A stretch of DNA of 64,000 nt from Bdellovibrionota bacterium (GTDB taxonomy: Bacteria; Bdellovibrionota_C; UBA2361; CALJRW01): positions 64,001 to 128,000 of the forward strand of contig JBGSMD010000006.1 of NCBI GenBank assembly GCA_041740355.1. The letters are read 5' to 3'. The notes below the pieces were generated by a model. That model saw only the letters and a program-made list of their open reading frames with translations, ran no database searches and was not told the origin of the DNA. Both the position numbers and the translations under genes were made by a program. Numbering within the stretch: position 1 is the first letter of the stretch; the number at the start of each line of letters is the position of its first letter. Shown here in pieces: positions 12,433 through 25,772 of the stretch.

Positions 12433-13794
12433 ATGAGTAATAATCTAAAGTTTGATTTTGATAAGCCGTTGGGTAACTTAAATAATTCCAGAGAGTCTGA
12501 AAATCTTGTAATCCAATGTCAGTATTGTGAAACTCGTTATTCCATTCCAAGTGAGAGTGTTGTTAATTCAGCAGCATCTAAATTTCATTGTTTTTCTTGT
12601 GATAATATTTTTGAAGTAGAAGTGGGGAGTAAAGTTCCACAGGCAGAAGCAGTAATCGAGCAAACGGGTTTTAATTTTAATTCAGAGTTAAAGTCTTCGA
12701 CGACCTCAAGCTTGCCATCTTTCCAAACAAAAGTGACAACTACTAACTTGTCATCTCCAAATCCAGCATCAGCTGTTTTACCTGCACCAGCATCAACAAA
12801 ACCTTCTTTTGGATTTAATTCTAGTCTCAAGGTGACCTCTGAGCCGCTTGTTGCTGTTCGAACTAAGAAAGAAGAATCCAGTGTCGCTGAGAAAATGAAT
12901 TTTGCGATTAGTAATAAAGCCCCCGATCTTTCAGCTCGTAATATAGATTCTAATCAACCACGCAAATCTTTTGTGTTTACTGAGTTTCAAAAATCCATTT
13001 CGAGTAAACCTGAGCTCCAACTACCAGAAGCAAAATCAAATTCTTCATGGATGGTTGGTTCTGAGTCAGCAGGGATAAAGTTACCAAATGTTTCGGTAAA
13101 GGGTTTGTTTGCTAAATTCTCTTTACCAAAAATTGATCCTAAAAAATTTACTAATAGCTTGCCCGATCTCTCCTTTCCAAAAATGTCCTTACCTAGTTTT
13201 TCTGCGCCACGATTTACATCAAAAAGATTCTCTTCCGAAAGTTTTGCAAAGCTTAATCCGGGACGTGCCAATTTTGGAGCATCAACAAGATTGATGGTTT
13301 TAGTTGCTCCGATTTTGTTAGTGTTAATATTGTTATATTTATTGACTAGTATTATTTTAACCTCTCCTCAAAGTTTTTCTGGTTACTTTGGATTCGCTAC
13401 GCAATCTTCCCGAAGTTATCCACTTCCCGGTGTTGGAGTAAAAAGCCTAGAATTAAAACTTGTTAAGTTAGACAATGGGGAAAATTTGCAGCTACTTACA
13501 GGGGAGTTTTATAATAACAGTACTAAGTCGATTAATAATCCAGTAATTGAAGGTGTATTGTTTGATACTAAAGGACAAGTTCTCTCTCGTTCTTTACACA
13601 CCCTTGATAAAGATATTTCTAAGGTTCAATATGCTTCGTTAGACCGTAAAACCCTAACTGAATTGCCTATCTCTAAAGAAAAGGATAAGTTTGTTCTGTT
13701 ACCTAATCAGAAACAAAGCTTTTCTTTTGCTTTGTCCACTGATTCTGAAATCCAGCCGACATATTATGCTGGAAGAGTTTATTCAATAAGTTAA
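12433..13794 (+). CDS. Zinc-ribbon (MJ0042-type) / TM / DUF3426-like protein
   Basis: IQCQYCETRY..FHCFSCDNIF; long Ser/Pro-rich linker; one TM; C-terminal LTGEFYNNS..PVIEGVLFD. Confidence 0.75.
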   Translation: MSNNLKFDFDKPLGNLNNSRESENLVIQCQYCETRYSIPSESVVNSAASKFHCFSCDNIFEVEVGSKVPQAEAVIEQTGFNFNSELKSSTTSSLPSFQTKVTTTNLSSPNPASAVLPAPASTKPSFGFNSSLKVTSEPLVAVRTKKEESSVAEKMNFAISNKAPDLSARNIDSNQPRKSFVFTEFQKSISSKPELQLPEAKSNSSWMVGSESAGIKLPNVSVKGLFAKFSLPKIDPKKFTNSLPDLSFPKMSLPSFSAPRFTSKRFSSESFAKLNPGRANFGASTRLMVLVAPILLVLILLYLLTSIILTSPQSFSGYFGFATQSSRSYPLPGVGVKSLELKLVKLDNGENLQLLTGEFYNNSTKSINNPVIEGVLFDTKGQVLSRSLHTLDKDISKVQYASLDRKTLTELPISKEKDKFVLLPNQKQSFSFALSTDSEIQPTYYAGRVYSIS

Positions 13795-14750: not shown

Positions 14751-15134
14751 TTAATTTAGTTCAACGGCAACTAATAATTTTCTAACTTCGCTCAGTAATA
14801 TATCCGGTTTGCATGGTTTAACTAGGACGCTGTTACAACCAGCACTGATTGCTTCTTGATGAATCTCTTCTTCGTCCATTGCGGAAAATGCAATAATTGG
14901 ACATTTAACTCCCAGGGTTCTCAGTCGTTTTACTGTTTCAGTTCCTGATAATTTTGGCATCATCAGATCCATCACAATTAAATCGGGATGATCCTTGTTC
15001 TTTTCCAGCTCACTTATAGCTAGGAGTCCATTAATCGCCTGATCTACCTGAAAACCATCATTTTCAAATAGTATTTGAATTAGATCTAATTGAGATACGT
15101 TATCATCCACTAGTAAAATCCGTTTTCTTTTCAT
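14751..15134 (-). CDS. Single-domain response regulator (CheY-like)
   Basis: ILLVDDN, DLIVMDLMMP, KP. The ORF track labels it +, but the sequence has cat at 15132-15134 and tta at 14751, so it is on the minus strand. Confidence 0.93.
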   Translation of the reverse strand: MKRKRILLVDDNVSQLDLIQILFENDGFQVDQAINGLLAISELEKNKDHPDLIVMDLMMPKLSGTETVKRLRTLGVKCPIIAFSAMDEEEIHQEAISAGCNSVLVKPCKPDILLSEVRKLLVAVELN

Positions 15135-15481: not shown

Positions 15482-16936
15482 ATGTTTGCTATAGATATTT
15501 TACCTTTAGTTGATTCCGAGCATCATTTGCCTGAAAGGTTTTTTCGTGGGCAACCATCTGTGATCATTGGCAGTGATCTTGAATGTCAGTTGCAACATCC
15601 CTTATTGAGAAATTTAAATTTTAACGTTTTAATTCAGAAGTTAGCTGGAAGTCAGTTTGAATGTCGCCAAATTTTTCATGAAAATTCTGATCGGGTTGGT
15701 TTTCAAGATATTTACGAATCTACTGCTAAGCTTAATCTTGGAACTGTCAAGATTCTGATAACAAGTATTGATGCTGATTTACTAGTCAAGGAGAACGAGG
15801 CTCCGGATCAAGCAGGCTATCGCTTGTTAAAACAGGCCGTCACTTCACAACTTACGACATTTCCCGCCTTAGAAATTAATAAACCATATAAAGCTGTAGT
15901 TTCTTTCAATCCCGATCAAGTACTAACTGTTGGTCGAGCGGATTATCATCATTTAGTGATTGAACAGTTCGATGTTTCTTCCGATCATGCCAGATTTGGC
16001 TTTGCAAATAATAAATATTGGGTTGAGGATTTAGGTTCTACCAATGGAACCTTTCTTAATAATCAACAAGTCTCTGGGAAGATATTTTTCGAACCGGGAG
16101 ACTCTGTTTTACTTGGAGCTAGCACAAAGATCACGGGATTGAAAAAAGTTGTTCAAAAAATAGTGGAGTCAGTGATTCCAGAACAAGTTTCAGTTAATAT
16201 CCCTCAAGAATCAGATCAATTACAGACCAACTCGTTACAAACATCTTATCCTGAGACTGAAGTGGAAGATCATCTTCCGACGGAAGAGCTTTCACTATCA
16301 CGGGTAGAAGAACTATTGGTCGATGTCCGTTATCCAGTATTGCTGGCTGTCAATAAGATTGCTCGTCCAGGGCGTTTAATTTTAAAGAAAGATCAAACTG
16401 TTTTAATTGGTCGTGATGCAAAATCAGATTTATGGCTAGGGGCACCCTATGTTTCTCGTGAGCATAATCAAATAACTTATTTAGGGGATGGTGAAATTCG
16501 AATTCAAGATCATAGTTCTAATGGTACTGCATATTCCGAAGGTATGATTCCGGCTGGCGGCGAATTACTTGTTAGTAATAAGTCTGAGATTTTACATTAT
16601 GGTTCTGGTTTAGCAGTTGCACTATGTTTTAACCAAGAAGACGAAGAAATATTTGTAGCTTCTGGTGGTCGTGCCGATGCTTTTATAGAAAATTTGCCAA
16701 CACCAATCAAGGAGCAAGTTTCTCCGCTGATGGCACCAAAGACTGCTACTTCCTCGAAAGAGAAGACATACCGTCCGTTACGTTCAAATGACGTTGTAAA
16801 AAATGGAGTAGTAGGAAAAATTCTTTATCGCTTCCTCAGTTTTGACATAAAAAGAAAGGTTTTCATTTGTTGTTTAAGCCTGCTAGTCATTGCGATATTT
16901 GTCTTATTAATATCAATAATCTTAACGTTTTTGTAA
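15482..16936 (+). CDS. Multi-FHA domain protein with C-terminal membrane anchor
   Basis: VGR..VSSDHA..EDLGSTNGTF and IGR..VSREH..QDHSSNGT FHA domains, a degenerate FHA-like N-terminus (IIGS), and a hydrophobic C-terminal TM. Confidence 0.85.
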   Translation: MFAIDILPLVDSEHHLPERFFRGQPSVIIGSDLECQLQHPLLRNLNFNVLIQKLAGSQFECRQIFHENSDRVGFQDIYESTAKLNLGTVKILITSIDADLLVKENEAPDQAGYRLLKQAVTSQLTTFPALEINKPYKAVVSFNPDQVLTVGRADYHHLVIEQFDVSSDHARFGFANNKYWVEDLGSTNGTFLNNQQVSGKIFFEPGDSVLLGASTKITGLKKVVQKIVESVIPEQVSVNIPQESDQLQTNSLQTSYPETEVEDHLPTEELSLSRVEELLVDVRYPVLLAVNKIARPGRLILKKDQTVLIGRDAKSDLWLGAPYVSREHNQITYLGDGEIRIQDHSSNGTAYSEGMIPAGGELLVSNKSEILHYGSGLAVALCFNQEDEEIFVASGGRADAFIENLPTPIKEQVSPLMAPKTATSSKEKTYRPLRSNDVVKNGVVGKILYRFLSFDIKRKVFICCLSLLVIAIFVLLISIILTFL

Positions 16937-16994
16937 TTTTTGTAATTTTTGTGATTTTTGGTGTTAATCGCACCTTTTGATGCAAAAATTCCAC

Positions 16995-17021
16995 TAAAGT
17001 TTCTAAATAGAGAGTCGATAT
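16995..17021 (+). promoter_or_regulatory. Sigma28 (FliA)-type promoter
   Basis: TAAAGTTT-N11-GTCGATAT versus consensus TAAAGTTT-N11-GCCGATAA (14/16). Confidence 0.7.
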
Positions 17022-17195
17022 TCTAAATAGCCAAACGATGTTAAGAGGCGTTTCATAATCTTTCCTAGTAAGGGTTAGTTATGATTAGCAATTGAAAAGA
17101 TAGATTTTTTGTCACCAATGAAAGTTTTTATTTTGCAGATTACTGCTGCAAAATTTACTTAGTGGCATTGTTAGCTTAATTTTATAATATTAAAT

Positions 17196-18263
17196 ATGTC
17201 AGCAGATAGTACAGAATTAACTTTTATTAGATGTTCATCATGTCGTAGCTTAGTGCCCGCAATGTCTACACGTTGTCGTATGTGTGGCGCAGATTTGCAA
17301 GCTAAGAAACCAACAGCTACTCCCGAGGCAACAGCCCCCAAGGAGAAAATTGAAGCAAAAGCACCAGCGATAGTTGCCAGCACGGAATTAGATCCCTTGA
17401 ATGAATTTTTAAGTGAAGAAGATCAATTCGATGATGTTGATATTGTTGATGATCAATTAGAAGCTTCAGATAAAGAATCTGATGAAGAATTCTCCGCTGG
17501 CAATCCTTCTGAATTTAGGGATGACTTTGAGGATGATTTTGATGAGGAACAAGCTATCAAAGAATTAGATAGTTTATTAGAAGAATTAAATGCGACTTCA
17601 GTTGCCACGGCAGTACCTATTCCAGTGGTTGCAACTCCTGTAGTACCAGTTGTAACTAAAGCAACAAAGTCTGAGCTGATTGATGTTTTAGAGCCAAAAG
17701 TTGTTCCGAAAAAAACCGAGACGAAAATCGAACCTGTCAAAGTTATGACTCCGGTTGCAGCTTCAGTAATTCCGCAAAATTTTAGTTCACCTGAACCAAA
17801 AATTCCAACAAAAGCTGAGATTAAAGAAGATATTATAAAAGAGGAGAATATTATGGAAAAAGAATTAAGAGCAGTGGAGAGTAAGGTAACTTCCATTAAG
17901 TCTGCTGGTATTAAACAACAACCTGATAAGCAAACAGCTTTATTCGGCTGGTTTGTTAGTTATCAAGAAGCGGTGGGCGTTTCTCGTGAAATTCGCGAAG
18001 GTAAATTTTTTGTTACCGCAAAAAGTTTAAAACCAAATGACCTAATTATCGAAGATGATAGTGTGTCTACGCCCCATGCGATGATTACAGTAAGTCATGA
18101 ACTTGGCTTTCAAATTCAAGATTTAATGAGTGAACATGGGTTGTATATAAAAAAACATGGATCTAAGAAGTATGAAGTGATTGATGATATTGAAGTTGTG
18201 GAGAATGGGGACTGGATTAGGTTCGGTAATATAGAATTCATGGTAGTAATAATGCCCGTCTAA
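17196..18263 (+). CDS. Zinc-ribbon / acidic linker / FHA domain protein
   Basis: CSSC..CRMCG N-terminus, D/E-rich middle, C-terminal VSTPHA..QDLMSEHG..DWIRFG FHA-like domain. Confidence 0.8.
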   Translation: MSADSTELTFIRCSSCRSLVPAMSTRCRMCGADLQAKKPTATPEATAPKEKIEAKAPAIVASTELDPLNEFLSEEDQFDDVDIVDDQLEASDKESDEEFSAGNPSEFRDDFEDDFDEEQAIKELDSLLEELNATSVATAVPIPVVATPVVPVVTKATKSELIDVLEPKVVPKKTETKIEPVKVMTPVAASVIPQNFSSPEPKIPTKAEIKEDIIKEENIMEKELRAVESKVTSIKSAGIKQQPDKQTALFGWFVSYQEAVGVSREIREGKFFVTAKSLKPNDLIIEDDSVSTPHAMITVSHELGFQIQDLMSEHGLYIKKHGSKKYEVIDDIEVVENGDWIRFGNIEFMVVIMPV

Positions 18264-18266
18264 AAA

Positions 18267-18424
18267 GTACAACCCAGCTTTTGGCGAATCTCGAATTTAA
18301 AACTAAGCTAAATTACTTCCCGCGGCGCCCTCTGGGCTTTGGGGGACAAGCAGCTGTACTCCAAGTACAGCTGCTTGTTTACCTTAGTTTAAAATCCGAC
18401 CTTCACTCAAAATCTGAATGGTAC
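18267..18424. repeat. MITE-like element with ~46-bp imperfect terminal inverted repeats
   Basis: gtac-ended arms pair along their length; internal perfect 15-bp stem acaagcagctgtact-cca-agtacagctgcttgt (18346-18378). Confidence 0.65.
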
Positions 18425-18555
18425 GGAATGCACACCAAACTTCTTTATGATTATATGGAGATAATCTGATTTTAATAGCTATCAGTTAATAACCAAAAGT
18501 AGAGAGTTTCAAAATCAGTGTGCTTATGTAAGAATAGCGGTAAGCTTAAAATCAA

Positions 18556-19398
18556 ATGAAAATAATTAAACTTACTTTTTTACTATTAATTCTTCTTTTT
18601 ACTAGTAGCTGTCGTGACGTCCAAGTCGCTGAAAATATTAATCAGTACCAGGCACATCAAATTATCAATAAGTTAAACTCAGCGGGAATAGACTCCAAGT
18701 ATTTTGCCAGCAATAACGGCAAATCTTATTCAGTTTCCGTGACCCAAAGAAATTATTTACCAGCAGTGGGAATTATTGCTTCTTCCGGAATTTTACCCAA
18801 GGTTGATTCAGATTTTAAAGAATTAACCGAGCCTAAAGGGTTCTTATCAAGCAATAAATCTTTTGATTTATTAAGACTAGACCGTGCTATCGCTGTAGAG
18901 TTGGAAGATGCTCTGCTAGGAGTTCCAAGTATCACCAACGCAAAGGTTGTTGTCCGTTTAAATAGTTTACCTGAAAACCAAATGCCCTCTGTCTCGATTA
19001 TTGCTGGAACACGTGATCAACAAACTGATCTTAGTTACATTACAGATTTAGTAAAAAATGCTATTCCCGGAATCCAAGACGATCATATTAAGCTAATCAT
19101 AGAGCGACTACCTGAATCTGAAGCTGATTTTTCGCTGATTGGAACAACACAGGCTCAGGGGAAGTTGTTGGCTGTCCCCTTAGTTCCGTTTTTAATCTGG
19201 CAGGTCCCTGCCGGGGTTGAATTAGAATTAGCTTGGACGGCAATTATAATTCTGATTTTTGCATTACTAGTGGGTTATTTTTTTGCAACACTTTTTCGTA
19301 AGCCGAAGTCTCGCGAACGTAATTCACTAAGTTTGCCAGAGTCAAGCTCTTTAGCGATAGGATTACAAAAAGATTTGAATGAGGAGGATTTTCGATGA
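18556..19398 (+). CDS. sctJ: Type III secretion inner-ring lipoprotein SctJ (YscJ/PrgK family)
   Basis: Lipobox TSSC, QAHQIINKLNSAGI, GILP, AIAVELEDAL..ITNAKV, PSVSI, LVKNAIPGI..IKL, C-terminal TM. Confidence 0.85.
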   Translation: MKIIKLTFLLLILLFTSSCRDVQVAENINQYQAHQIINKLNSAGIDSKYFASNNGKSYSVSVTQRNYLPAVGIIASSGILPKVDSDFKELTEPKGFLSSNKSFDLLRLDRAIAVELEDALLGVPSITNAKVVVRLNSLPENQMPSVSIIAGTRDQQTDLSYITDLVKNAIPGIQDDHIKLIIERLPESEADFSLIGTTQAQGKLLAVPLVPFLIWQVPAGVELELAWTAIIILIFALLVGYFFATLFRKPKSRERNSLSLPESSSLAIGLQKDLNEEDFR

Positions 19399-19640
19399 GC
19401 CCAGAGAATCAAGGAATGGTTTTCAATAAATTAGCTCCAGAGCAACAAGCTTTAGTCGCAATAGCTGTCTTGCTTGACGGTTTTGATAGTCCCTTTTTTT
19501 TAGGAGAGGATTTTAAGTTTGAGGATCAATTGCGGAAGGCCGCAGAAGAAATTGTAAAAGATGCTCCTGCGCAAAGGTTGCCATATGTGGCAACGTTACT
19601 GCGTCGAGCTTTAAATGAGTTAAGGAATCAAGATGAGTGA
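19395..19640 (+). CDS. Small helical protein, FliG N-terminal/SctK-like (tentative)
   Basis: KLAPEQQALVAIAVLLDG resembles the FliG N-terminal helix; translationally coupled between sctJ and the FliM/SctQ-like gene. Confidence 0.4.
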   Translation: MSPENQGMVFNKLAPEQQALVAIAVLLDGFDSPFFLGEDFKFEDQLRKAAEEIVKDAPAQRLPYVATLLRRALNELRNQDE

Positions 19641-20628
19641 GAATTGGCAATTAGCTGACGAAATTGAAGAACTTGATCCCAAGATAATTAAATATGGAAT
19701 TGGTTTTCTAAAATCACGTCCCCAGAATTGGATTCCTAACTTCTCAACTTTTTGGACTCCATTACTAGATCTTTTAAATTTCGAGGTAGCAGTATTAGAT
19801 ATTCAGCCAACATTTGAATTCCCATTAAGTGGAAGTGGAGTTTGGTTAGGAGCCTTTGAAAATAATAAAATTGGAATTAGTTGTGAACCCTTTGTCGCTA
19901 AATATTTAGCTAGTCTTTTTATTACAGATATTGATGCGGAGACAAGTAAGATTTTAGAGGATTATCTTGCTAGACGATTAATGCGTTCGCTCGTTGCTTC
20001 CTGGACTGGGCCGTCACTAAGTAATTTTAAATATTTTGGTGCCAGTTCCATTAAAGATTTCGATCCAAGTGCTGGTATTAAAATTACAATGTCGATAAAC
20101 GGTAGGCAAGTAACGCTTTGGTTATTAATTGAAGAGCTTTTACTCAAAAAATTGGATAATTTGTGGAGAAGGCAAACCACAACATTTAATATTAAAAAAT
20201 TAGAGGCTAGAAAATACCAATTAATTCTATTTACACAGCAAATCCAACTAGACGATTTAGAGTCATTATTGGTAATAGGAAATAAGATTTACCTTACTGG
20301 CTTGGATCCTAAGTATTTAGCAATGCGGGATGTGATTAATGACTCCACCTGGAAAGTTAAGCTTTACAGTAGCACCGATCAATTAGTAATGAAGATTCTT
20401 GAATCAAACGTTGCATATCAATTAGATCTAAGAGATTTATTAATGCGGGTGACGTTGCCTGAAATTACATTAAGTACTGAACAGCTACAGTTAAATAGTA
20501 GCGAATCATTCTTGCCTACTGGCTTAGCCCTGGGAACAGAGCTTATGATTAAGGTTTCTGATGAAACTGTGGCCCAGGCTAAGTTAGGCAAAGATACAAA
20601 CGGTTACTATGCTGAAATTCTAAACTAG
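19633..20628 (+). CDS. Divergent C-ring protein, FliM/SctQ-like
   Basis: Position between sctJ and sctR; ILEDYLARRLMRSLVASWTGP resembles the FliM middle domain; SpoA-like LDDLESLLVIGNKI and VAQAKLG segments. Confidence 0.5.
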   Translation: MSENWQLADEIEELDPKIIKYGIGFLKSRPQNWIPNFSTFWTPLLDLLNFEVAVLDIQPTFEFPLSGSGVWLGAFENNKIGISCEPFVAKYLASLFITDIDAETSKILEDYLARRLMRSLVASWTGPSLSNFKYFGASSIKDFDPSAGIKITMSINGRQVTLWLLIEELLLKKLDNLWRRQTTTFNIKKLEARKYQLILFTQQIQLDDLESLLVIGNKIYLTGLDPKYLAMRDVINDSTWKVKLYSSTDQLVMKILESNVAYQLDLRDLLMRVTLPEITLSTEQLQLNSSESFLPTGLALGTELMIKVSDETVAQAKLGKDTNGYYAEILN

Positions 20629-20698
20629 CTATCTTTATCAGGCGTTAGTTGAAAATTCCCCCTAGAATGCTTGAGGTAACTCAGTTATACTCCACAGC

Positions 20699-21271
20699 AT
20701 GTTAGAATTAGTGTTTATTATGTTGGTGTCCAGTGCTTTTATTAAGCTTGTAACGACACTCAGTATTTTTCAGTACGGATTAGGGCTTAAGAATTTTTCC
20801 TTTAGCATTATAGTTTTTCTATTTAGTCTAGTTTTAACCCTTTTTGTAATGCAACCTACCTGGGATAATTTGGGAGGTTGGCAAGGAGTAAGTAAAGCTA
20901 CCCCCGAACAAGTTGTTATCTTTCAAAGTCAAATTGATCCATTTGTTACTAAGCATAGTGATCCTGAAACGCTTGCAAAGTTACAAGCAATCTATCAAAA
21001 AAATCAGCCTGAAGTTTCAGTGACAGTTATTCCTTGGTCAGTAAAGATTACGGCCTTTATGATTACGGAACTAAAAGAAGCTTTTTATATTGGACTTTTA
21101 TTAATCATACCTTTTATTTTCCTAGATTTACTGACAGTTAATATTTTAATGGCGCTGGGAATTACTCAAATTTCAGCTTTAACTGTAGCACTACCCTTCA
21201 AATTGTTAATTTTTTATCTTTTCGATGGGTGGCAGTTATTAACTGAGAAATTGCTAAGCTTTTACAATTAA
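20699..21271 (+). CDS. sctR: Type III export gate protein SctR/FliP
   Basis: SAFIKL..GLG, LFVMQP, AFMITELKEAF.IG..IPF..LDL..NILMALG, LPFKLLIF..DGW. Confidence 0.92.
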   Translation: MLELVFIMLVSSAFIKLVTTLSIFQYGLGLKNFSFSIIVFLFSLVLTLFVMQPTWDNLGGWQGVSKATPEQVVIFQSQIDPFVTKHSDPETLAKLQAIYQKNQPEVSVTVIPWSVKITAFMITELKEAFYIGLLLIIPFIFLDLLTVNILMALGITQISALTVALPFKLLIFYLFDGWQLLTEKLLSFYN

Positions 21272-21276
21272 ATAAA

Positions 21277-21525
21277 ATGACTCCAGACTTATTAATTGAA
21301 TCATTAATTTATGCTGTACGTATTTTTTTATTGGTAACAATTCCACTTTTAGCCATCTTGACCTTGGCTGGTACTATTTCAGGAATGCTCCAAGCAATAA
21401 CAGGGATACGGGAAAGTTTACTGAATTATTTGACTAAGCTAATTGCCTTGTTTGCTGTGTTTTATTTCTTTTTGCCAAGCTTCTTACAAACTTTGGAAGA
21501 AATGTTTAATAACTACTACTTATGA
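21277..21525 (+). CDS. sctS: Type III export gate protein SctS/FliQ
   Basis: 82 aa; IPLL..AG..SGMLQAITGIRE..L.Y..KL matches the FliQ/SctS LQA.TQIQE motif; follows sctR. Confidence 0.88.
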   Translation: MTPDLLIESLIYAVRIFLLVTIPLLAILTLAGTISGMLQAITGIRESLLNYLTKLIALFAVFYFFLPSFLQTLEEMFNNYYL

Positions 21526-22097
21526 CACCATTAGTACTTAGTGGAGTAATAGTTTACTGTTGGGGACGGATTGGTTTTCTCTTGGGGTTAATATTTCTAA
21601 TTAGCTTACTTATTTATTTTACAGGCGAGCTGGGACTTTCGATCACACCTTTAGAAAGGCTCTTGTTAGTATCTTCCGTAATGAGCCTTCCGCTCAGTTT
21701 TTATTTAGCTGGTTCATATCTAGATAATTATTTAGCGGATAAATTTTCTTTCCAGTTACCTTTCGCGCTGGTGTTTCTTTTGTCTGGTAGTTATCTTTTA
21801 TTAGAGCAAGGACTTTTAATAGATCAACTTGACCATACATTAAATTTAATTAATGCCGCAGCTGATAATTCCTTCTTAATGATTCTGTTCGAAATAATTA
21901 GTAAGATAATTATGACAACCACAGGCCTAATGCTAATTGTTTTATTAATCGCGCTAATTTTTATTGTGCCACTTGCTTGGCTGATGAAAAATTCTCAATT
22001 GAATTTTAGTTGGAGTATCCCCAGTCTTAATTTCATATTGATATTATTTTTTTTAGCATCCGGCTACCAGTTAATTTTATCTAAATTATTATCCTAA
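21522..22097 (+). CDS. sctT: Divergent, shortened export gate protein SctT/FliR
   Basis: Very hydrophobic; between sctS and sctU; FYLAGSYLD and WLMKNSQLNFSWSIPS echo FliR AG..ID and RAAPQLN..P motifs. Confidence 0.6.
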   Translation: MTPLVLSGVIVYCWGRIGFLLGLIFLISLLIYFTGELGLSITPLERLLLVSSVMSLPLSFYLAGSYLDNYLADKFSFQLPFALVFLLSGSYLLLEQGLLIDQLDHTLNLINAAADNSFLMILFEIISKIIMTTTGLMLIVLLIALIFIVPLAWLMKNSQLNFSWSIPSLNFILILFFLASGYQLILSKLLS

Positions 22098-22772
22098 ATG
22101 GCTTTTAGCTTTCTAAATAACAGGCAGCTGCAAGACCTTCGTCGGCAAGGAATTTTCCAATATTCTTCTTGGACTAGTCGGCTTATTGTCTTAGTCAGTC
22201 TCTCTGGTTATTTTTATTTTTCTGGGGATAAGTTAATTCCTATGCTATTAAGTTTTTATCAAAATCTTTTCTCAATTCATGATTTAAACTTAATGGTAGT
22301 GGGGCAATTTTGGAGTAAGCTGTTATTTGATTTTATATTCATCCCAACATTACTTTTAATACTGTCAATTTTAATTGGGGGGTTATTACAGACTAAGTTT
22401 TATTTAAGATTTAATAGTCTGGCATTTGACTTGGGGCAACTTGGATTAAAGGCACAGTTGCAAAAAATTAAGCCAATTAAACGAATTTTATTTGGGCTAG
22501 CATTTCCGATACTATTTTTTATTCTATTAATGTTAACAATAAGTTGGGTAAAAAATCTACTTATTGCTTTTTCCTGGGCGCAGGAGGAATCTCTCGTTCA
22601 GTACTTATCTCTCTTCAAATCAATTGCTAGTCAAATTGCCATCGTTGCTGTATTATTAATATTCTTAGCAACGATCCTCAACTGGTTCTATTTCCGGCTT
22701 GAACATCGAAATATTGATCATGATTTGGCAGAAGATTCTGCCAATCAGAGTGCTATTGATAGTATTAGATAA
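22098..22772 (+). CDS. sctU: SctU/FlhB membrane domain only (cytoplasmic NPTH domain absent)
   Basis: RQLQDLRRQG..S, GGLLQTKF..AFDL..L, four TM segments; ORF ends shortly after TM4. Confidence 0.75.
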   Translation: MAFSFLNNRQLQDLRRQGIFQYSSWTSRLIVLVSLSGYFYFSGDKLIPMLLSFYQNLFSIHDLNLMVVGQFWSKLLFDFIFIPTLLLILSILIGGLLQTKFYLRFNSLAFDLGQLGLKAQLQKIKPIKRILFGLAFPILFFILLMLTISWVKNLLIAFSWAQEESLVQYLSLFKSIASQIAIVAVLLIFLATILNWFYFRLEHRNIDHDLAEDSANQSAIDSIR

Positions 22773-23014
22773 TGCCATACCCAAAAAAAGACTTAATATC
22801 GCATGCTCCTTTATTCTTGTTATTACCAGAACGTCGCTCTTTGGATGGCTTTGAGAAGTATCTGTCTGCTTTTTATTTAAGGCTGGAAAAACTTAAACAG
22901 TTAGAGCAAGAAGGGGATCAGTTATCAAGCGAAGATTTATCTGAACTAACAATGCTACGGCAAGTCGTCGATTGGCTTACACTCCATTCAGAAATTGAAA
23001 GTAATAGGAATTAA
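22772..23014 (+). CDS. Small hypothetical protein in T3SS-like operon
   Basis: 80 aa, helical, coupled to sctU (taatg overlap). Confidence 0.7.
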   Translation: MPYPKKDLISHAPLFLLLPERRSLDGFEKYLSAFYLRLEKLKQLEQEGDQLSSEDLSELTMLRQVVDWLTLHSEIESNRN

Positions 23015-23019
23015 TAAAA

Positions 23020-23439
23020 ATGAGTTTATTAGATGCTAAGTCCAGTAGTTATTCCGAGGAAGAGTTGGACTTGCTTTACTCTTTGGGTCTTTTTTATTTA
23101 GAAGCGGGACATTATCGTTCGGCAGAAATGATCTTTCAGGGCTTAACCGCAGTAGCCCCCAGTTTTGCTGATAGTTGGTTAGCAGCTTCAGCTACATTCT
23201 TTATGTTAGGTAATTTTGATCAAGCTAAACGCCATGCGCATCAAGCAATGCGTCTAAATCCCCATGATATTCAAGTACAATTACTTTATGTGACAATCTT
23301 ATTGTCTCAAGGTGAATTATCTGAGGCAGGAACTTTACTTGGTGAAATTAAAGAGCAGATTGATACTCGGGTGATTCAGAATCCCGATCAGATACGTTAT
23401 TTTAAAGCACAGTTAGCAAGATTCGAATTTGGTCAGTAA
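23020..23439 (+). CDS. TPR protein, T3SS chaperone-like (SctY/SycD type)
   Basis: LYSLGLFYLEAGHYRSAEMIFQGL..AP followed by two more TPR units; last gene of the operon. Confidence 0.75.
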   Translation: MSLLDAKSSSYSEEELDLLYSLGLFYLEAGHYRSAEMIFQGLTAVAPSFADSWLAASATFFMLGNFDQAKRHAHQAMRLNPHDIQVQLLYVTILLSQGELSEAGTLLGEIKEQIDTRVIQNPDQIRYFKAQLARFEFGQ

Positions 23440-23499
23440 GCATTTAGACTTTGGCAGATCTCAAAAGAAAAAACTATAAATATTTACGTAGGTCAGTAG

Positions 23500-23850
23500 T
23501 TACAACTTTTCTTTGTCATCATCTTCATCATTGTCACCCGAGTCAACTAATGCTGCATCGATAGTTTGCTTTACAGCTAATTCAATTGCCTCGCGTTGAG
23601 CTTGAGGTATTTTTGAGTTAGAAAAAAGCTTTTCAGCTTCTTGCTCTACCATTTGTAATAATTCGCTACGTTCTTGGAAAGACATTTCCCTCGTAGGCAT
23701 TCGACTAGTGCTAGAGACGCCAGTAATTGCTCCAACTTTAGAAGTTTTATTAACCTGAGAAATTGCTTCGGATTTACGTACCGAATTTAAGGCATCAGTT
23801 TTATTAATACCCTTAATTTTTTTATCATTTGAATCAACACCATCAACCAT
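23500..23850 (-). CDS. Hypothetical protein downstream of sigma factor (possible anti-sigma or secreted substrate)
   Basis: 116 aa, low-complexity S/K/T-rich N-terminus, helical C-terminus; GGAGA RBS upstream. Confidence 0.7.
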   Translation of the reverse strand: MVDGVDSNDKKIKGINKTDALNSVRKSEAISQVNKTSKVGAITGVSSTSRMPTREMSFQERSELLQMVEQEAEKLFSNSKIPQAQREAIELAVKQTIDAALVDSGDNDEDDDKEKL

Positions 23851-23878
23851 TTTATTCTCCGTTCATTTAGAAATCTAT

Positions 23879-24664
23879 TTAGTACTGTCCTGAAAATTCT
23901 GAAACTTTTTTTGTAAATATTCCAAAATCTTCTTGATTTGCTAAGACCATATTGGCATCTTTTAGTCCTGGCCTAATACGCGGGCAATCTAATTCTTTAC
24001 CTGTAGAAACACTTTTTTGTAGATACTCCATGATGACTTTGTGTTCTCGAATTACATTTAACTCATCGGTATTCCATTCCGTTGCAACACCACGAAGCGA
24101 TAGTCCTTCCCAGTAGACCTTCCAGACTAGTAATTGATGCAGAGGTTGTAGATCGGAGAGATTGATGATCAATTGTTTAAACTCAGTTGCTTCTTCCGGA
24201 TTGGAATCTTGAATTCCATGTTTAGTAGATATTAAACAGGCACTAATTAACAACTGTTGAATTCCAACGCGGACACCTTGTTCCGAATCATCATCACTCG
24301 GCAAAACACCTGATCTAATTTGAGGATATAATTCAAATAACTCAGCAGAAATTGCGCGGGCTAATCTTTCTGTGCGTTTAGAATTGCGACTATCTTTTTC
24401 CCAAGATTTACTATTACGGGCAGCTTCAGTAGATGCTTCATGAATTCTGCGGCGGGCATAACTCTTAAATGGCACACCTAAATTAGGATCAAATCTGCGA
24501 GCACAAAAAATTAATGCTTCAAAAGCAGCTCCATCTAGTCCATCATCTTGCCAATGTAAACTCCATCCCCGAGCAACCGATTTGGCAATTTTCTCTGCCC
24601 AAATTTGGTGTTCAAGTACTAACTCATTGGCTTCATCCATGCTTAAAATCGTTGTTTCGGTCAT
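23879..24664 (-). CDS. Divergent sigma-70 family factor, FliA/group 3-like
   Basis: Region 2 AAFEALIFCARRFDPNLGVPFKSYARRRI; region 4 LQPLHQLLVWKVYWEGLSLRGVA. Confidence 0.8.
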   Translation of the reverse strand: MTETTILSMDEANELVLEHQIWAEKIAKSVARGWSLHWQDDGLDGAAFEALIFCARRFDPNLGVPFKSYARRRIHEASTEAARNSKSWEKDSRNSKRTERLARAISAELFELYPQIRSGVLPSDDDSEQGVRVGIQQLLISACLISTKHGIQDSNPEEATEFKQLIINLSDLQPLHQLLVWKVYWEGLSLRGVATEWNTDELNVIREHKVIMEYLQKSVSTGKELDCPRIRPGLKDANMVLANQEDFGIFTKKVSEFSGQY

Positions 24665-24986
24665 CTTAAGTATTTTACATTAAAAATTTAGAATTCGCCA
24701 TAAGTTTATAGAAGCAGTTCCCTAAGAATCCACGACAATTACTTATGTGCAATGCACTAATCGCAGACTGGCTATTCAAATCTTGGCTAAATCCCAAGTT
24801 TGAGTTCCTAAAAACAATAAGCTTAGTAAACCCAAGGGAAATTCCTGAAATGTTCTTCAGAAATTATTTTTGAATTTACTATAAATTTTAAGCTGTTCAA
24901 ATTTAATCGAAGTGATTTTTGAACCAGCCGTGGATTCCAAAAGTTAATGTTGCTATACATTTCCTTTTGGAGTCCACTCATAAGGG

Positions 24987-25772
24987 ATGTTTGTTATGAG
25001 TAATAGTCGTTCAGAAGAAGCTAAAACTAAAGCTAAAATATATGATTTCGCAAAAATAGTTGAGCGTAAGGAATCAATTGCGACCCACCTAAGTATCCAT
25101 GAAAAGAATGGTTTAATCATGAAAAACAGAATTCAGGGCCGTAAATTAGCCTGTAGCATGCTAAGAAAATGGAACTGTCGACTAGATTTAGAAGAAGTTG
25201 ATAGTATCGTAGACTTATCTCTCTGCGAAGCAGTAAAGTATTTTGACCCGGCCAAAGGAGTGAATTTTCTAACTTTCCTTTTCTATCATTTACGTGGAAA
25301 TTTAATTCGTACAATTAAAATCCAAGCGAATCAAACTGCTATTCCTTTAGAGTTTACCGATGAGAATATGGAAAGTGGCTATATCGGTCATGAAAGAATT
25401 AATACTGCTGATGCTTTTGAAACTTTTGGAACTGTCCAGAAGTCTCCCGACCAGCAATTACAAGAAGGCCAATTTTTCGAATTAACAAAACTTGCTTGTG
25501 AAAAATTAACGGATCTGGAGCGAGAAATTATCAAAAATGTTTTTATTCATGAGGAGCAGGTAACCCAACTTGCACAAGATTTAAATTATAGTCGCTGTCA
25601 TATTTCCAGATTAAAAACAGCTACGATTAATAAATTAAGATCAGAGATCGAAAAAATTACAGGCGAGAAAATTTCTGTATCGGAAGGAGTAGATAGTCCT
25701 CGTCGAGCACTAGATGTTAGACATCGAGTTCGTGTGCACAAGGTTAGGAAGGTAAAAAAGATAGCTGCTTAA
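24987..25772 (+). CDS. Sigma-70 family factor, FliA/group 3-like
   Basis: SLCEAVKYFDPAKGVNFLTFLFYHLRG; LTDLEREII..TQLAQDLNYSRCHISRL HTH. Confidence 0.88.
   Translation: MFVMSNSRSEEAKTKAKIYDFAKIVERKESIATHLSIHEKNGLIMKNRIQGRKLACSMLRKWNCRLDLEEVDSIVDLSLCEAVKYFDPAKGVNFLTFLFYHLRGNLIRTIKIQANQTAIPLEFTDENMESGYIGHERINTADAFETFGTVQKSPDQQLQEGQFFELTKLACEKLTDLEREIIKNVFIHEEQVTQLAQDLNYSRCHISRLKTATINKLRSEIEKITGEKISVSEGVDSPRRALDVRHRVRVHKVRKVKKIAA

Follow-up and report, generated by a model that had tools for sequence, protein, structure and literature searches.

The Myxococcus type III secretion system (T3SS), designated T3SS*, is described as a kit of SctD, SctJ, SctI, SctQ, SctRSTUV, SctN and SctL with LcrH-like chaperones, to which the accessible text of the papers concerned assigns no secretin, needle or translocon (PMC10433427, PMC12075869, PMC12428579, PMC3459982). 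It has been recruited together with the Kil system, which is Tad-like and FHA-rich (PMC10433427, PMC12075869, PMC8460266, PMC12428579) and whose hallmark is an FHA-rich cluster with a KilF ATPase that carries an FHA domain at its N terminus by fusion (PMC8460266). How T3SS* cooperates with Kil/Tad is described as an open question in the papers concerned, and a 2025 review states that their co-occurrence 'appears restricted to the Cystobacterinae' (PMC12428579). Here we report a T3SS-like locus (Table 1) in a stretch of 64,000 nucleotides, hereafter the window, from a Bdellovibrionota genome, G000 (GCA_041740355.1, contig JBGSMD010000006.1; G000:C6:64001-128000). With a probability of about two in three, we regard it as encoding the core of a conserved, non-flagellar T3SS*-like machine that has neither needle nor secretin, is one of two paralogous sets and has its SctV in a Tad-like operon. 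A sequence-only reading of the window had proposed neither a flagellum nor a canonical injectisome but a remodelled export gate akin to the Myxococcus T3SS*, and this is borne out by the position of SctV in a Tad-like operon, by the joining of that operon to window-type genes in other orders, by the predicted FlgM-like partner of sig1 and by the order-wide conservation of the locus with low dN (nonsynonymous divergence).

Like T3SS* (mxan_2434-2464) and Kil of M. xanthus, as described in the accessible literature, the present system lacks a T3SS secretin and has a SctD-like protein, SctJ, SctQ, SctRSTUV (SctT by position only) and an LcrH-like tetratricopeptide-repeat (TPR) protein, with SctL and SctN found in relatives, and it goes together with an FHA-rich Tad-like machine, here by gene linkage alone. 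Unlike in Myxococcus, where the published clusters are separate, SctV lies here in the Tad operon and in a supercluster; SctU lacks the cytoplasmic domain and the SctD-like protein lacks the periplasmic domain; and kinase genes are embedded, whereas a count of the word 'kinase' in the Kil paper's main text gives 0. In addition, G000 has no Tad secretin, its genus has no SctN or SctL, and the lineage is a different one. The 'Myxo' long and short non-flagellar T3SS loci of Abby and Rocha (2012) are likewise described as two conserved, paralogous, incomplete loci per genome, with vertically conserved order and content and a deep position relative to injectisomes, but they keep the ATPase, which G000 does not (PMC3459982). 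No prior description of SctV inside a Tad operon, or of this lineage's system, was found in the literature within reach, which excluded supplements and subscription papers; Supplementary file 2 of PMC8460266, on Kil-like clusters of Bdellovibrionales, could bear on novelty.

The G000 assembly comprises 3.27 Mb on 74 contigs (97.3% complete, 0.4% contaminated, GC content of ~37%). It was compared with G001, its congener in the same genus, within a set of 41 genomes of the order (G000 included) and 20 window-type loci, as well as with 124 genomes of the phylum and with five genomes from other orders of the same class (G050, G051, G054, G057 and G067). The further T3SS clusters of G000 lie on contigs C64, C20 and C30, and these names are also used for the cluster types.

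Gate genes and the Tad-type pilus

By Pfam and NCBIfam matches, contig C30 of G000 carries, in this order, genes for an FHA protein, a serine/threonine kinase, TadZ, CpaB, CpaF, TadB, TadC, SctV (693 aa) and a kinase-like protein of receptor type, which combines a transmembrane (TM) helix with ~460 extracytoplasmic residues. The adjacency of TadC, SctV and the kinase-like gene was observed in 16/16 loci of the relatives. In three of the five other-order genomes (G051, G067 and G050), the Tad-SctV cluster ran directly into FHA1, FHA2, SctJ and orf81, as these genes are named in Table 1. SctQ came next in G067 and G051; orf81 is the last gene of the stretch from G050, and the G051 supercluster continued with R, orf80, the TPR gene, orf116/sig1 and sig2. 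The stretches from G054 and G057 contained only the sig2/sig1 pair (with orf116 after it in G054) and a C20-type cluster. Since the Tad-SctV cluster adjoins window-type genes without a break in these three genomes of other orders, the C30-type SctV belongs, by gene neighbourhood, to the window's gate. This arrangement shows the pilus, kinase/FHA, gate, chaperone and sigma genes as what appears to be one inherited unit, split in the window's order. Four Flp pilin (Flp_Fap) genes were also found in G000, away from C30. The proteins encoded at the flanks of the cluster include FHA proteins; in the CpaF homologue of G000, no FHA domain was detected at E <= 0.01.

The gene order speaks to the cooperation of T3SS* with Kil/Tad, in that SctV is fixed in the Tad operon and the genes form one block in sister orders, and it would extend the Tad/T3SS* pairing beyond the myxobacterial suborder. 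It also names concrete candidate partners, namely SctV with TadB/C, the kinases with FHA1/FHA2, and sig1 with orf116. Going further, the Tad pilus and the needle-less gate might be the two halves of one composite trans-envelope machine, ancestrally encoded in one supercluster, in which the pilus replaces needle and secretin, the gate loads chaperoned cargo, receptor kinases and FHA proteins fire on contact, FlgM-like export reports activity, and in this genus the whole runs without an ATPase. We put this forward tentatively, as possible rather than probable; were it true, nature would have shown, in this genus, a gate of this kind at work with no ATPase at all.

The operon order that the sequence-only reading had given (sctJ, a small open reading frame (ORF), SctQ, R, S, T, U, a small ORF and a TPR gene) was recovered in full, apart from SctT, which is unverified. 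The gate proteins fell far below the NCBIfam equivalog cut-offs, with a slight lean toward the non-flagellar models; SctR matched the EscR/YscR/HrcR subfamily (E 7.7e-34) and SctJ matched TIGR02544 III_secr_YscJ (E 7e-17), both below cut-off. SctJ has a lipobox near residue 18 and a C-terminal TM helix. FHA1 matched Yop-YscD_cpl above cut-off (E 7.6e-13) and has one TM helix at residues 462-480 followed by 4 residues. Because the tail after this helix is 2-10 residues long in 13/13 copies (G000 and 12 relatives), FHA1 has no periplasmic ring domain. FHA2, whose position is conserved in relatives, consists of an N-terminal Cys-rich segment that looks zinc-ribbon-like, an acidic linker and a C-terminal FHA domain.

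Table 1. Features of the T3SS-like locus and its divergent neighbour; positions are those of the window
Feature	Position	Strand	Basis or remark
Response regulator with receiver domain only (127 aa), divergent from the operon	14751..15134	-	Pfam Response_reg, E 5.9e-26
FHA1, 484 aa, tail-anchored, SctD-like, two FHA domains	15482..16936	+	FHA, E 9.5e-25
FHA2, 355 aa	17196..18263	+	C-terminal FHA, E 3.6e-6
SctJ, inner-membrane ring lipoprotein	18556..19398	+	YscJ_FliF, E 2e-9
orf81, small helical protein	19395..19640	+	Between SctJ and SctQ; no Pfam match
SctQ (FliM/FliN-like), platform protein, 331 aa	19633..20628	+	Orthologues and AF2 fold
SctR (FliP family), 190 aa	20699..21271	+	Pfam FliP, E 9.8e-36
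SctS (FliQ family), 82 aa	21277..21525	+	Bac_export_3, E 2e-10
Positional 'SctT', polytopic membrane protein, 191 aa	21522..22097	+	Position, size and membrane topology only
SctU' (SctU/FlhB membrane domain only), 224 aa	22098..22772	+	Bac_export_2, positions 10-205 of 335
orf80, small helical protein	22772..23014	+	No Pfam match
TPR protein, 139 aa, class II chaperone-like (LcrH/SycD or SctY-like)	23020..23439	+	TPR_19, E 2.7e-12
orf116	23500..23850	-	Disordered N-terminal half, conserved helical C-terminal half; no Pfam match
sig1, sigma-70 family	23879..24664	-	Sigma70_r2, weak; most conserved gene of the locus
sig2, sigma-70 family, divergent from sig1	24987..25772	+	Sigma70_r4 and Sigma70_r2

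The window's SctQ copy gave no Pfam or NCBIfam hidden Markov model (HMM) match of its own, and the G000 genome has no SpoA match. FliMN_C was carried by 14/16 of the SctQ orthologues (best E 4.6e-15), and the AlphaFold2 (AF2) model, with a predicted local distance difference test (pLDDT) score of 82, retrieved FliM (8umd_C, E 2.7e-7) and FliM(SpoA)::FliN (4yxb) in Foldseek. The orthologues and the predicted FliM-like fold identify the 331-aa protein as SctQ, as had been suggested, and its SpoA domain has apparently diverged below HMM detection in this genus. Pairwise BLASTP showed no similarity between this protein and the 257-aa ORF of C64.

At the SctT slot, an ORF of 168-230 aa was found in 18 relatives. 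The window's protein gave no Pfam or NCBIfam match, its profile had 0 matches to the sequences of the PDB at E <= 1, and Foldseek with its AF2 model returned nothing at E <= 0.001, the FliR chains standing at ranks 26 and 33 (TMq 0.37-0.38). In the wide VIA comparison, FliR (6s3s_F) scored Z 5.7 at rank 38, amid generic helical bundles. Alignment by hhalign with the C64-type T and flagellar FliR profiles gave a probability of 0.1-0.2%, and pairwise BLASTP with the C64 T found no similarity; the C64 T, its positional paralogue, does match Bac_export_1 (E 4.1e-12).

The SctU of the operon had been called truncated. It does consist of the membrane domain only, but the short form is kept across the family. 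Window-type U is 173-242 aa long in 18 relatives, and its profile aligns only to residues ~1-250 of FlhB/SpaS proteins of 342-415 aa. The NP[TE]H motif was absent from the window's SctU', from the ORFs of the 18 relatives' window-type loci and from ten C64-type U proteins (245-290 aa), and flagellar FlhB, as an internal control, had 363-370 aa with NPTH@271 in 5/5 relatives examined. Against 1.84 billion representative proteins, the window-type U profile had 6472 matches at E <= 0.001, including 136 at E <= 1e-30, and the best 150 of the 6472 were all 193-254 aa long. Judged from these profiles and lengths, a short SctU without the NPTH autocleavage domain is a conserved and diversified family trait rather than a local truncation, and a large family of SctU proteins without the switch domain is thereby defined.

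Paralogous sets and the SctV tree

A second gate operon lies on C64 of G000, with small ORFs, the 257-aa ORF, SctR, SctS, SctT, a 245-aa SctU and a histidine kinase. The C20 cluster holds a sigma factor, SctJ, a small ORF, SctV (613 aa) and a TPR gene, and both cluster types are syntenic among relatives. The C20-type cluster of the relatives contains a second SctQ, with FliMN_C matched in all seven ORFs at that slot (7/7), and this gene is missing in the genus of G000 and G001. Upstream of the C64-type R lies an ORF with a weak likeness to FliK/SctP, and Flg_hook was matched in 5/11 (best E 5.5e-4). It had been stated that the window holds no SctV, SctN, secretin, rod or flagellin gene, which is true for the window; the genome-wide profile search, which had been proposed as a check, found two SctV genes, a second R-S-T-U set and a second SctJ elsewhere, and no SctN, T3SS secretin, flagellin or rod gene. 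The equivalog cut-off of TIGR01399 hrcV, 692 bits, was reached by neither SctV protein (524.7 and 424 bits).

An SctV/FlhA tree was built from 41 rows under LG+G4 by a quick search, with support from the Shimodaira-Hasegawa-like approximate likelihood-ratio test (SH-aLRT) only. Three clades had an SH-aLRT support of 100 each: the C30-type (17 rows), the C20-type (11) and the flagellar-type (5). The C30- and C20-types grouped with the named injectisome references (support 96) and away from flagellar FlhA. Both types were excluded from a clade (97) of five named injectisome SctVs (Hrp1, Inv-Mxi-Spa, Ysc, Rhizo-type and a Burkholderiales copy), in which an atypical copy from a Rhizobium plasmid was also placed. 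The plasmid copy, from Rhizobium sp. TAL182 (L124; NZ_CP021027.1), is a 643-aa protein annotated as 'FlhA' and encoded beside pectate lyase and EscU/YscU-family genes; it groups with the injectisome SctV references, beside the Rhizo-type copy, and not with flagellar FlhA.

The likeness to the canonical injectisomes (Ysc, Inv-Mxi-Spa, Hrp and Rhizo) thus lies in homologous SctJ, Q, R, S, U (membrane part), V, L and N, in the cytoplasmic FHA fold of SctD, and in SctV types that group with injectisomes and not with flagellar FlhA. The differences are that SctC, the SctU C-terminal domain and the SctD periplasmic domain are missing here, and that SctV falls outside the clade of the five named references. 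A canonical flagellum or injectisome whose parts are scattered elsewhere, as in Chlamydiae, would suit the spread of the T3SS genes of G000 across four contigs, as well as the full flagellar gate, full-length FlhB and flagellar FliI of the relatives. However, flagellin, rod, SctN/FliI and a T3SS secretin are all missing from G000, the flagellar genes of the relatives are a separate third paralogue set, neither non-flagellar SctV type falls within the flagellar clade or among the five named injectisome SctVs, and neither non-flagellar SctU has the NPTH domain. A scattered canonical system is therefore largely refuted, and we find it hardly credible. Its Chlamydia-like form, which the low GC content and the FHA genes had suggested, was set aside in view of the absence of SctN and SctC and of the Tad-linked SctV; the needle search (SctF, PF09392) found no match in G000, but its positive control failed too, with matches in 0/14 control genomes.

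ATPase loss and conservation of the locus

The FliI/YscN model was matched above cut-off in 37/41 genomes of the order. A high, flagellar-type match (573-609 bits) was present in 36/41, a second match of 389-465 bits in 28/41, and three further genomes had a second match of ~370 bits, two of them with an internal stop. In G002, a non-flagellate member of the window's family, only the second type was found. This second ATPase was part of a MurJ-SctL(FliH family)-SctN module in 8/10 of the relatives' stretches, MurJ being non-adjacent or undetected in the other two. Neither G000 nor G001 contained FliI/SctN, the best matches being F1 beta subunits. The gene next to the G000 MurJ orthologue, 78 bp after it, lies on the opposite strand, and tblastn with four relatives' SctN and SctL detected no remnant of either, only F/N-ATPase subunits and Rho. 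The missing ATPase is thus real for G000 and G001, but it is a loss of this genus, since most relatives have SctL-SctN. The stop-bearing SctN-type matches (G025:C93:8557-9852 and G005:C3:49705-50988, with one in-frame stop each and just under the cut-off) may represent independent ATPase erosion outside the genus. ATP-synt_ab was matched in G000 only by the pairs of an F1Fo and of an N-ATPase-type enzyme and by a 417-aa protein, probably Rho from its size and a weak match. As a side observation, a second ATP synthase operon lies at G000:C64:~65000-72200 (beta, epsilon, two small ORFs, a, c, b, alpha, gamma), a gene order typical of N-type ATPases, and a standard F1Fo operon is on C26.

The only secretin-domain genes in G000 encode GspD (TIGR02517, 516 bits, in a gspC-D-E-F operon) and PilQ (TIGR02515, 341.6 bits); no SctC, no Tad secretin (RcpA/CpaC/KilC) and no third secretin-domain gene was found genome-wide. 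Flagellin_N, Flg_bb_rod and FliI were likewise absent from G000 (FliG and MotAB were not searched), and both of its FlhB homologues are short. Only the two non-flagellar FlhA/SctV types occur in the window's family, and most of the order has a complete third, flagellar set with full-length FlhB; the flagellum looks to have been lost at the family level. Taken together, the genus of G000 and G001 has lost SctL-SctN, the second SctQ and the flagellar set, and has kept the rest.

The rest is widely conserved. FliP homologues were present in 41/41 genomes of the order, mostly three per genome, and the order sample carries three FlhA/SctV types. The FHA-J-orf81-Q block adjoined R in 15/20 of the relatives' loci, the TPR gene was downstream in 18/20, and sig1 lay within the fetched stretch in 11/20; the five loci without the upstream block kept the R-S-T-U-orf80-TPR-orf116-sig1-sig2 half alone. 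The identity of sig1 was 49-57% in ten non-genus relatives' loci and 96% in G001, and an orthologue (E <= 1e-20) was found in 113/124 genomes of the phylum. The 11 genomes without it are mostly incomplete, yet one is 94% and one 93% complete. All ORFs of the locus are intact and of the same length in G000 and G001. As the synonymous divergence (dS) between these two was saturated (>=1.4) or undefined, the nonsynonymous divergence (dN) was compared with flanking genes instead of using dN/dS. For most locus genes, dN was 0.03-0.17, and for the flanking CAAX-protease and Ham1 genes it was 0.16 and 0.19, respectively. Synteny, low dN and intact ORFs indicate that the locus is probably under purifying selection rather than decaying, and the term 'degenerate', which had been applied to it, does not fit a locus that is syntenic order-wide with low dN. 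The check in relatives that had been proposed along with that term came out as kept gene order and low dN for most genes, with the exceptions of SctT (dN 0.41) and SctU (dN 0.43) and with dS saturated.

These two values weigh against the interpretation as a maintained machine. Considered with the long SctV branches of G000 and G001 and with the disappearance of SctL-SctN and of the second SctQ, they may point to early decay in the genus. That the locus, at least in this genus, is the decaying relic of an export apparatus from a flagellum or an injectisome has in our estimate a slim chance. The loss of the flagellum, a SctQ whose SpoA domain is beyond HMM detection and the stop-bearing second ATPase in G025 and G005 would agree with it. 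On the other side, the genes are intact and of equal length despite saturated dS, dN is not above that of the flanking genes except for T and U, the gene order is kept within the order and into other orders, sig1 occurs throughout most of the phylum sample, and the short SctU has diversified, all of the best 150 representatives being short. We thus favour a machine kept under selection. With SctL-SctN lost in the genus, export would be driven by the proton-motive force through SctV; the flagellar T3SS can export on proton-motive force. This lineage would then be a natural one in which a T3S-like gate has been kept under selection after ATPase loss, which bears on the origin of injectisomes from flagella and on the minimal working type III export gate.

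Regulation, proposed function and minor observations

Upstream of the gate, the two predicted FHA genes were confirmed. The two downstream genes, predicted to encode FliA-like sigma factors, do belong to the sigma-70 family, with only a weak likeness to FliA: sig1 matched TIGR02937 (E 1.4e-9) and FliA_WhiG (E 2.6e-7; 30.6 bits against a cut-off of 189.6), both below cut-offs, and sig2, conserved beside sig1, gave SigB/F/G- and FliA-like matches below cut-offs. The N-terminal half of orf116 is Gly/Ser/Val-rich and disordered, and in relatives its gene abuts or overlaps sig1. The predicted complex of sig1 and orf116 scored 0.75, against 0.31 for the best of three controls; the mark for this score is reached by 58/80 solved complexes and by 2/110 mismatched pairs. 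The runs had a contact agreement of at least 58% and a partner pLDDT of at least 52. On this structural prediction, orf116 is a candidate FlgM-like anti-sigma factor that may bind sig1. FlgM is exported through the flagellar T3SS. As in the FliA-FlgM checkpoint, a sigma gene lies here beside a T3SS gate and a small, half-disordered partner is predicted to bind; unlike in that checkpoint, sig1 is below the FliA/WhiG cut-off, orf116 has no FlgM Pfam match, and its export is our suggestion.

A control by phospho-threonine/FHA signalling and alternative sigma factors had also been proposed. Two kinase genes and an FHA gene in the SctV operon, and sig1 with its predicted FlgM-like partner, are in line with it. 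The encoding of a membrane kinase and an FHA scaffold protein with a secretion machine resembles the PpkA-Fha1 pathway in the type VI secretion system, or T6SS, a different machine, and the likeness here is drawn from the genes alone. The authors of the Kil study proposed the T6SS threonine-phosphorylation model for contact-triggered assembly (PMC8460266). The divergent response regulator was kept at the same position, with 43-50% identity, in 11/20 of the relatives' loci; a twelfth locus had only a 323-aa, 33%-identical response-regulator match elsewhere in the stretch.

In the mechanism that we propose, SctR/S/(T)/U' and SctV would form an inner-membrane export gate within the SctJ ring, with SctQ docked to the gate through the cytoplasmic domains of the SctD-like FHA1. 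Threonine phosphorylation, read by FHA domains downstream of the membrane kinases, would switch assembly or firing. The cargo would be small proteins chaperoned by the TPR protein, which matched T3SS_chap_SctY (E 2.2e-9) and LcrH_SycD (E 2.5e-9), both below cut-off; orf80, which may be a cargo or a SctX-like partner of the TPR protein, has a counterpart of 74-103 aa directly upstream of the TPR gene in 18 relatives. The machine having no needle or secretin of its own, cargo would reach the periplasm and then be handed to, or loaded onto, the co-encoded Tad-type pilus so as to act on other cells upon contact, in the way proposed for Kil/T3SS* of Myxococcus. If the FlgM-like orf116 were exported through the gate, sig1 would be released and gene expression would thereby be tied to gate activity. 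The functions of killing or nutrient siphoning that had been suggested would, on this analysis, be extrapolations.

Several observations weigh against the T3SS*-like interpretation. If the protein at the SctT slot, whose homology to SctT/FliR is undetectable, is not SctT, the set has no canonical R5S4T1 core. G000 has no Tad- or T3SS-type secretin through which pilus or cargo might cross the outer membrane. The SctV branches of G000 and G001 are long, and the branching order among the C30-type, C20-type and injectisome groups is not resolved; moreover, the tree contains no Myxococcus sequences, and a position outside the five injectisome SctVs establishes no sister relation to the 'Myxo' loci. 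Which SctV, J and Q serve which R-S-T-U set is assigned by gene neighbourhood only. In G040 (L052; G040:C31:1-19800), the window-type R-S-T-U-orf80-TPR-orf116-sig1-sig2 half stands back to back with the C20-type sigma-J-small ORF-V-TPR cluster, and the two paralogous sets may, from this arrangement, exchange or share parts. Finally, the passing score of sig1 and orf116 may mirror a likeness to solved sigma-28/FlgM complexes, orf116 having no FlgM Pfam match.

An assembly or signalling device was also considered, in which the gate, as a checkpoint or loader of the Tad pilus or a secretion-coupled switch of a sig1/sig2 regulon, delivers no effectors to other cells and sends to the periplasm only regulators of its own (orf116) and a small number of envelope or pilus components. 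Such a device would suit the lack of a dedicated secretin and a needle search that gave no match but whose control failed too, the tight linkage of the sigma/anti-sigma-like pair to the gate, the SctV inside the Tad operon and a SctU without the substrate-switch domain, which fits a single substrate class. The present data, however, fit effector delivery equally, and the Myxococcus analogue is reported to be needed for prey lysis in the accessible text of two papers (PMC12428579, PMC10433427). A further point is that the locus has a TPR class II-like chaperone gene. Such chaperones usually accompany and escort secreted proteins. On balance we consider this device unlikely.

The gate might instead seed intercellular membrane nanotubes for nutrient exchange, as a nanotube-type CORE. 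A minimal gate without filament parts suits that model, and other members of the T3SS family are reported in nanotube formation (PMC9380563, accessible text). Nothing in this analysis speaks in its favour, however, and a T3SS*/Kil-like device is suggested by the tight linkage of the gate with genes for a Tad-type pilus, with FHA/kinase modules and with chaperone-like genes. Furthermore, the CORE model was reportedly built on flagellar genes, and those studied here are non-flagellar paralogues. We consider nanotubes very improbable and retain the T3SS*-like machine.

Some minor observations complete the description. The identity of orf81 was 36-46% in 14 non-genus relatives' loci, 88% in G001 and 40-46% in three other-order genomes. 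In most relatives, a gap of ~300-400 bp lies between orf81 and SctQ (e.g. L047:8106-8457 and L049:8646-8979), with room for one small ORF, and it is missing in G000, G001 and a few others. A 453-aa ORF (12433-13794, plus strand), with weak zinc-ribbon and DUF3426 matches below cut-off, lies upstream of a SpoU-type rRNA methyltransferase gene and has, as far as could be seen, no apparent relation to the T3SS-like locus. The sequencing-run search found the locus stretch in no RNA run. Near-identical matches to positions 18556-22772 were limited to three runs of a single 'hot springs metagenome' study; as this DNA may itself derive from one of them, they count neither as independent support nor as a sign of expression.

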